Shown: in pieces, positions 28,130-28,500 of the stretch
Numbering within the stretch: position 1 is the stretch's first letter
Layout: each line of letters opens with the position of its first letter
Assembly: GCF_003334305.1 (NCBI RefSeq)
Contig: NZ_QOWS01000014.1
DNA: 64,000 nucleotides
Reading direction: 5' to 3' (one strand)
From: Escherichia coli
GTDB taxonomy: Bacteria; Pseudomonadota; Gammaproteobacteria; Enterobacterales; Enterobacteriaceae
The notes under the pieces: model-generated
The model's input: only the letters and a program-made list of their open reading frames with translations
Told to the model about the DNA's origin: nothing
Database searches by the model: none
Made by a program: the position numbers and the translations under genes

Positions 28130-28500
28130 CTATACTTCCTCCGTGTTTTCGATGAGATGTAAGGTAACCAATTTTTGCCGATTCGGCTAATGCGTTTCCA
28201 TTATCAAATCGATAAGTTTTACCTTACAACCTTCGTAAGACAACTTTGTGAACTTTGCACCGCCAGCGGCGATAAAAAGTAAAATGGCCCCCTTTCCAGG
28301 TGACCGTGTAATCTGAACTACCCTTTGGTATCTTCAGCGCCTGCCTGCAGGCTGAGGTGTTGCCCTTACAAATGCAACAACGACATGGATTACAACACCC
28401 TCATAAACAAAGGGCAATCACCTGATCTAAGCTCTTACCTATGACAGTGATAGGTTATGCCTTTTACTCGACTTTTGCACTGACTGAAAAGGACAAATTA
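28130..28500. promoter_or_regulatory. Divergent ahpC / dsbG promoter region (OxyR-regulated by established knowledge; site not pinpointed)
   Basis: 371-bp intergenic region between divergent starts. The OxyR operator of ahpC is known to lie here but I could not place it precisely by eye. Confidence 0.5.

Follow-up and report, generated by a model that had tools for sequence, protein, structure and literature searches.

The in-frame ATG upstream of Escherichia coli dsbG: probably part of an OxyR operator and not a start codon

The dsbG gene of E. coli can be read from two ATG codons in the same frame. We put at about 90 % the probability that DsbG is translated from the downstream one, at position 28501, and that the upstream one, at 28441, is part of an operator and not a start codon. 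The finding is an ordinary one and already known: the accepted start at 28501 stands. What the initial annotation, which had proposed the upstream ATG as an alternative start, appears to have overlooked is the nature of the 60 bases in question, which to judge from their sequence consist of OxyR operator and of dsbG promoter and leader. The interest of the case lies solely in this explanation, an ATG that would be pinned by an OxyR half-site.

The window analysed here is a stretch of 64,000 nt of the E. coli chromosome (GCF_003334305.1, contig NZ_QOWS01000014.1), in which ahpF and ahpC are divergent from dsbG and citR lies downstream of dsbG. The features that matter for the choice of the start codon are the following:

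25830–27425, minus strand: ahpF
27566–28129, minus strand: ahpC
28441–28443, plus strand: upstream in-frame ATG, the end of CTATG in the predicted OxyR operator core
28441–28500, plus strand: open “extension” of 20 codons, free of stops up to the annotated ATG at 28501
28489–28493, plus strand: Shine-Dalgarno sequence AAGGA, 7 nt before the ATG at 28501
28501–29247, plus strand: dsbG coding sequence from the probable functional start, 248 aa plus stop
28501–28551, plus strand: signal peptide of 17 residues, cleaved before EELP

Between the start codons of ahpC and dsbG (28130–28503), a single base (28338) distinguishes the window from K-12 MG1655, so that data obtained with K-12 are directly applicable to it; the DsbG proteins of the two differ at 5 residues. 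The stretch 28130–28620 is found in 5422 of 5426 complete E. coli genomes, and identity over the dsbG upstream stretch is at least 99 % in 5240 of 5423 genomes. This stretch is too conserved for variation within the E. coli population to be more than a weak test.

Two in-frame ATG codons and the start of dsbG

The upstream ATG had been described accurately: both the sequence and the list of open reading frames agree that it is in frame with dsbG and adds 20 residues, and no stop interrupts the 20 codons from 28441 to 28500. The list holds a single ORF at this place (28441–29247, plus strand, 268 aa), in which the 20 extra residues are followed by the signal peptide. Counted from 28501, the dsbG frame stays open upstream for 25 codons, to a TGA at 28423–28425, and offers a GTG at 28447 as a second candidate start. 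Among 48 RefSeq-annotated genes around dsbG, taken from the RefSeq genome that is identical to the window over 28130–28620, an in-frame ATG precedes the start before the first stop is met in 6 (12.5 %) and an in-frame ATG, GTG or TTG in 15 (31 %); the random expectation for an upstream in-frame ATG is about 25 %. An in-frame ATG ahead of dsbG is no more than chance gives.

The two codons differ sharply in their predicted capacity to bind ribosomes. The calculated duplex with the anti-Shine-Dalgarno sequence reaches -5.3 kcal/mol at 28501, placing this codon among the best 9 % of the strand's ATGs, whereas the value at 28441 is -0.5 kcal/mol, which 65 % of the ATG triplets on the strand equal or better; this calculation detects no Shine-Dalgarno sequence ahead of 28441. 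Unfolding in the long-leader mRNA would cost 8.0 kcal/mol at 28441 versus 5.6 kcal/mol at 28501. In addition, the (T)AAGGA motif is kept in nearly all dsbG orthologues.

The start is annotated at 28501 by RefSeq/PGAP and in K-12 (NP_415137.2, 248 aa). The protein matches NCBIfam NF008657 (DsbG equivalog, PRK11657) over its full length, with 425.1 bits against a cut-off of 124, and since residues 19–268 of the long form align to positions 2–251 of the 251 positions of the profile, the model of the family agrees with the short start, its N-terminal end falling 3 positions ahead of the Met encoded at 28501. A cleavable Sec signal peptide before EELP and a CxxC active site (FCPYC) are both present. 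The precursor sequences of PDB entries 5g1l and 5g1k begin at the Met encoded at 28501, and the mature chains of 1v57 and 2h0g begin at EELP, residue 38 when counted in the long form. By calculation the 248-aa precursor weighs 27.51 kDa, the mature protein 25.69 kDa and the 268-aa form 29.79 kDa; Andersen and colleagues are said to have given 27.5 kDa for the DsbG precursor and 25.7 kDa for the mature protein, with which the first two computed values agree. The initial annotation had preferred 28501 as the more plausible start, and the Shine-Dalgarno sequence, the orthologues, the substitution pattern, the family profile and the PDB constructs all agree with that preference.

In one strain, E. 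coli EPSSH018, an ISApl1 element (IS30-like; 2585–3645 of that locus) is inserted at window position 28504, directly behind the start codon of dsbG, and PGAP calls a chimeric DsbG of 263 aa that starts within ISApl1.

A predicted OxyR operator around the upstream ATG

The upstream ATG is embedded in CCTATgacagtgATAGG, as the ATG of CTATG. The intergenic region between ahpC and dsbG contains two candidate OxyR sites and a second ahpC promoter:

28428–28464, no strand assigned: predicted OxyR operator, TAAGCTCTTACCTATGACAGTGATAGGTTATGCCTTT, centre 28446, common to dsbG and the upstream ahpC promoter
28190–28226, no strand assigned: classical OxyR site of the ahpC promoter, centre 28208, about -55 from the main ahpC transcription start site (TSS) at 28153/28154
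28381–28417, minus strand: upstream (second) ahpC promoter, -35 TTGCCC at 28417–28412, spacer of 17 nt, -10 TGTAAT at 28394–28389

When the OxyR consensus ATAGnTnnnAnCTAT-N7-ATAGnTnnnAnCTAT, which has 20 specified positions, was scored over the whole 64-kb window, the site at 28428–28464 matched at 16 of the 20, the top score in the window and one that none of 10 shuffles reaches. The match spans all four OxyR half-site positions and thus goes beyond the central palindrome. A pattern search allowing at most 3 mismatches returned no match, the site at 28428–28464 having 4. The classical site at 28190–28226 matches at 13 of the 20 positions, the second best score within the intergenic region. 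The centres of the two sites are exactly 238 bp apart, and the centre at 28446 lies 54–55 bp before the ATG at 28501. These two distances agree with the OxyR site that Zheng and colleagues reportedly described, centred 54 bp ahead of dsbG and 238 bp upstream of that of ahpC.

OxyR has been described to activate ahpC and the divergent dsbG via two sites in their intergenic region (PMC6389858). Published cap-enrichment data place the main ahpC-strand TSS at 28153/28154 and another at 28381/28382, among others; the latter is recorded at 638692 by SMRT-Cappable-seq and at 637916 (U00096.2) by Cappable-seq. The centre of the predicted operator is at about -65 from this upstream TSS and the operator adjoins its -35 element, and a AAAGGGCAAT block is conserved at the upstream promoter. 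The operator core TCTTAcCTATGgcTGTGATAGGtt occupies -52 to -57 from the dsbG ATG in nearly all loci outside Pectobacterium, and is conserved in Escherichia, Salmonella, Citrobacter, Klebsiella, Raoultella, Kosakonia, Pluralibacter and others. From the consensus match, the published activation via two sites and the spacing attributed to Zheng and colleagues, we infer that OxyR binds at 28428–28464.

In the arrangement that we propose, CTATG would be one arm of a palindrome, CCTAT-N7-ATAGG, that makes up the core of an operator between the divergent dsbG and ahpC. The stretch 28441–28500 would then comprise the promoter-proximal half of the operator, followed by the core promoter and leader of dsbG with the Shine-Dalgarno sequence AAGGA. 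In Escherichia and Salmonella it would be free of stops in the dsbG frame by mere happenstance; its lack of a stop in these two genera is what permits ORF finders to lengthen dsbG by 20 codons.

Elsewhere in the window, at 54373–54409, an AT-rich sequence matches the OxyR consensus at 15 of the 20 positions and is second best overall; 4 of 10 shuffles reach 15, and the match is probably due to chance.

Two further features of the intergenic region deserve mention. On the minus strand, 28274–28367 matches the Rfam family STnc70, an enterobacterial sRNA candidate, with 44.1 bits against a gathering threshold of 40 (E=3e-7). The match lies inside the long ahpC 5' leader that starts at the upstream TSS 28381/28382, and it may represent a fragment of this leader rather than an independent sRNA. 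On the plus strand, the 158-nt dsbG leader holds a small ORF, MQQRHGLQHPHKQRAIT (28372–28425), in the dsbG frame, which is probably not coding because it overlaps the upstream ahpC promoter on the opposite strand. Its TGA is replaced in other Escherichia lineages (three loci), where the frame is open for 43–44 codons upstream of the Met at 28501, and E. albertii has an additional in-frame ATG at -43.

Orthologues, transcripts and alternative readings

We compared 65 enterobacterial orthologue loci, one genome per species. All but one (64 of 65) have an ATG at the position corresponding to 28501, which precedes the conserved P.PVK motif by a fixed 20 codons, or by 24 in Pectobacterium. The fate of the operator ATG could be followed in the 59 loci with a recognisable operator core:

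Operator ATG out of frame: 31 of 59 loci
Operator ATG in frame and followed by a stop: 13 of 59 loci (in Citrobacter, TAA in TATAAGGA)
Operator ATG changed to ATA: 6 of 59 loci
Operator ATG in frame and open: 9 of 59 loci

The nine open loci belong to Escherichia (5, the window included), Salmonella (2), Franconibacter (1) and Kosakonia (1), and in Escherichia and Salmonella the open frame has the identical length of 20 codons. The Citrobacter stop sits 1–3 codons before the Met. Frame and start are thus kept together in only 9 of 59 orthologues, and the operator ATG is, as far as these loci can tell, conserved as DNA and not as a codon.

The pattern of substitutions points the same way. Relative to Salmonella, changes at codon positions 1, 2 and 3 number 10, 7 and 11 in the extension and 38, 15 and 136 in the mature region, an excess at positions 1 and 2 of the extension (Fisher p=3e-6). 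Relative to Escherichia sp. E1V33, third positions have changed in 1 of 20 codons of the extension versus 99 of 231 of the gene (p=5e-4), and the extension is the better conserved of the two between E. coli and this species. The two comparisons together indicate that the DNA of the extension is constrained at all positions, and no third-position bias of the coding type was found in its 60 bases. Three SNPs were found within E. coli in the extension, two in strain KTa008 (28444 and 28468) and one in O157:H7 (28447), and each of them is nonsynonymous. By this measure the extension appears to evolve as constrained regulatory DNA and not as coding sequence.

One published transcript start is assigned to dsbG:

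28343, plus strand: published dsbG TSS, giving a 158-nt leader (Kim et al. 2012, PMC3415461)

It was reported at U00096.2 position 637954 on the basis of 25 reads from exponential growth (Kim et al. 2012, PMC3415461), and we placed it on the window through its 51-nt promoter sequence. The long-leader mRNA that starts there contains the ATG at 28441, and since the codon is carried by this transcript, absence from the mRNA is not usable as an argument against a long-leader isoform. SMRT-Cappable-seq lists no dsbG TSS, and a promoter and terminator scan of the dsbG strand found nothing. In a table for Salmonella LT2 the dsbG gene feature measures 758 nt, versus the 807 nt needed for 268 aa; considered as evidence for a TSS, this feature was rejected, being an annotation.

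OxyR activates ahpC, katG and oxyS. By analogy with these genes, an OxyR-activated dsbG promoter would lie downstream of the operator, in which case peroxide-induced dsbG mRNA should lack the ATG at 28441. The dsbG ATG follows the operator ATG at a nearly invariant distance, 59–61 nt in 53 of 59 loci, and in most genera a -10-like TATAAG at -14 overlaps the Shine-Dalgarno sequence. Given the -55/-65 geometry at the two ahpC promoters and an operator centre 55 bp before the ATG, an OxyR-dependent dsbG TSS would be expected within a few bases of 28501, which suggests that the OxyR-dependent mRNA is possibly leaderless or endowed with a very short leader. That dsbG has two mRNA forms, a constitutive one with the long leader, from which traces of a 268-aa precursor are made, and an OxyR-induced one that is leaderless or nearly so, seems unlikely to us.

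It is quite unlikely, moreover, that the long-leader mRNA is also weakly translated from 28441, to give a small amount of a 268-aa pre-DsbG whose n-region is lengthened. The leader from 28343 does include the codon, no stop closes the frame in Escherichia and Salmonella, and the 268-aa form is annotated by some submitters (its K-12-type sequence occurs in 182 contigs, compared with at least 1000 for the 248-aa form). However, the codon has no Shine-Dalgarno sequence (-0.5 kcal/mol) and its region is the more structured one, the substitutions in the extension carry no coding signature, and most genera lose the frame yet keep the DNA motif. The 20 residues are acidic and aromatic, unlike an n-region, which upholds the earlier remark that they do not resemble a signal peptide. 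Should the 268-aa form be exported and cut at AFA/EELP, an identical mature protein would result; an isoform that leaves the mature product as it is would have no selectable function. The longer isoform allowed for in the initial annotation is not supported by any positive evidence, lacking a Shine-Dalgarno sequence, conservation and a coding signature alike.

The other possibility raised there, a leader peptide, has next to no probability. The idea that dsbG is regulated through translation of the 20 codons, as a leader peptide or upstream ORF, draws on an open frame with an ATG, but a separate ORF is impossible with no stop codon between 28441 and 28501. The stretch also has no Shine-Dalgarno sequence, is not conserved as an ORF and shows no match to an Rfam cis-regulatory family on the dsbG strand. 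Very improbable, if a little less so, is a chance palindrome at 28428–28464 that owes its conservation to another regulator or to a hairpin in the leader RNA. The sequence could indeed fold into a hairpin of 5–6 bp in the long-leader RNA, but a match at 16 of 20 positions over all four half-sites, at the top of the window, argues for OxyR, as does the spacing of exactly 238 bp to the ahpC site, which is the reported one. The position at about -65 from a mapped ahpC TSS and the two OxyR sites described for this intergenic region (PMC6389858) speak against chance as well. An OxyR operator that happens to contain an in-frame ATG remains the reading we prefer.

Relation to known systems

The ambiguity of the dsbG start is an old annotation issue and not a discovery, because both lengths are already in public databases: at the same locus, K-12 dsbG (b0604) has been re-annotated from 268 to 248 aa. 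Our analysis confirms the accepted start, and the 268-aa database entries would be over-extended. Other start calls in this family and neighbourhood vary too. The longest ORF of ahpF comprises 531 aa versus 521 aa in RefSeq and is another case of an upstream ATG, with three consecutive in-frame ATGs 8–10 codons upstream of the annotated start. In a literature table, the dsbG orthologue of K. pneumoniae, KPN_00649, measures 621 nt, as against the 747 nt of its E. coli counterpart; its start is under-called in that annotation, and dsbG start calls vary both ways across genomes.

With the OxyR operator that Zheng and colleagues reportedly described for the dsbG-ahpC intergenic region, the window shares the four half-sites of ATAGnTnnnAnCTAT-N7-ATAGnTnnnAnCTAT and their location about 54 bp before dsbG and 238 bp from the ahpC promoter site. 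The long form of DsbG, for its part, is of a kind with the spurious N-terminal extensions produced by longest-ORF annotation, in having an upstream in-frame ATG without a Shine-Dalgarno sequence. A general trap may be recognised here, namely that a half-site of the form CTATG can fix an in-frame ATG upstream of a gene and mislead callers that choose the longest ORF. Unlike ordinary spurious extensions, however, the upstream ATG of dsbG would be maintained because selection acts on it as part of a transcription-factor binding site, and it would therefore persist from genus to genus, also where it does not lie in the dsbG frame.
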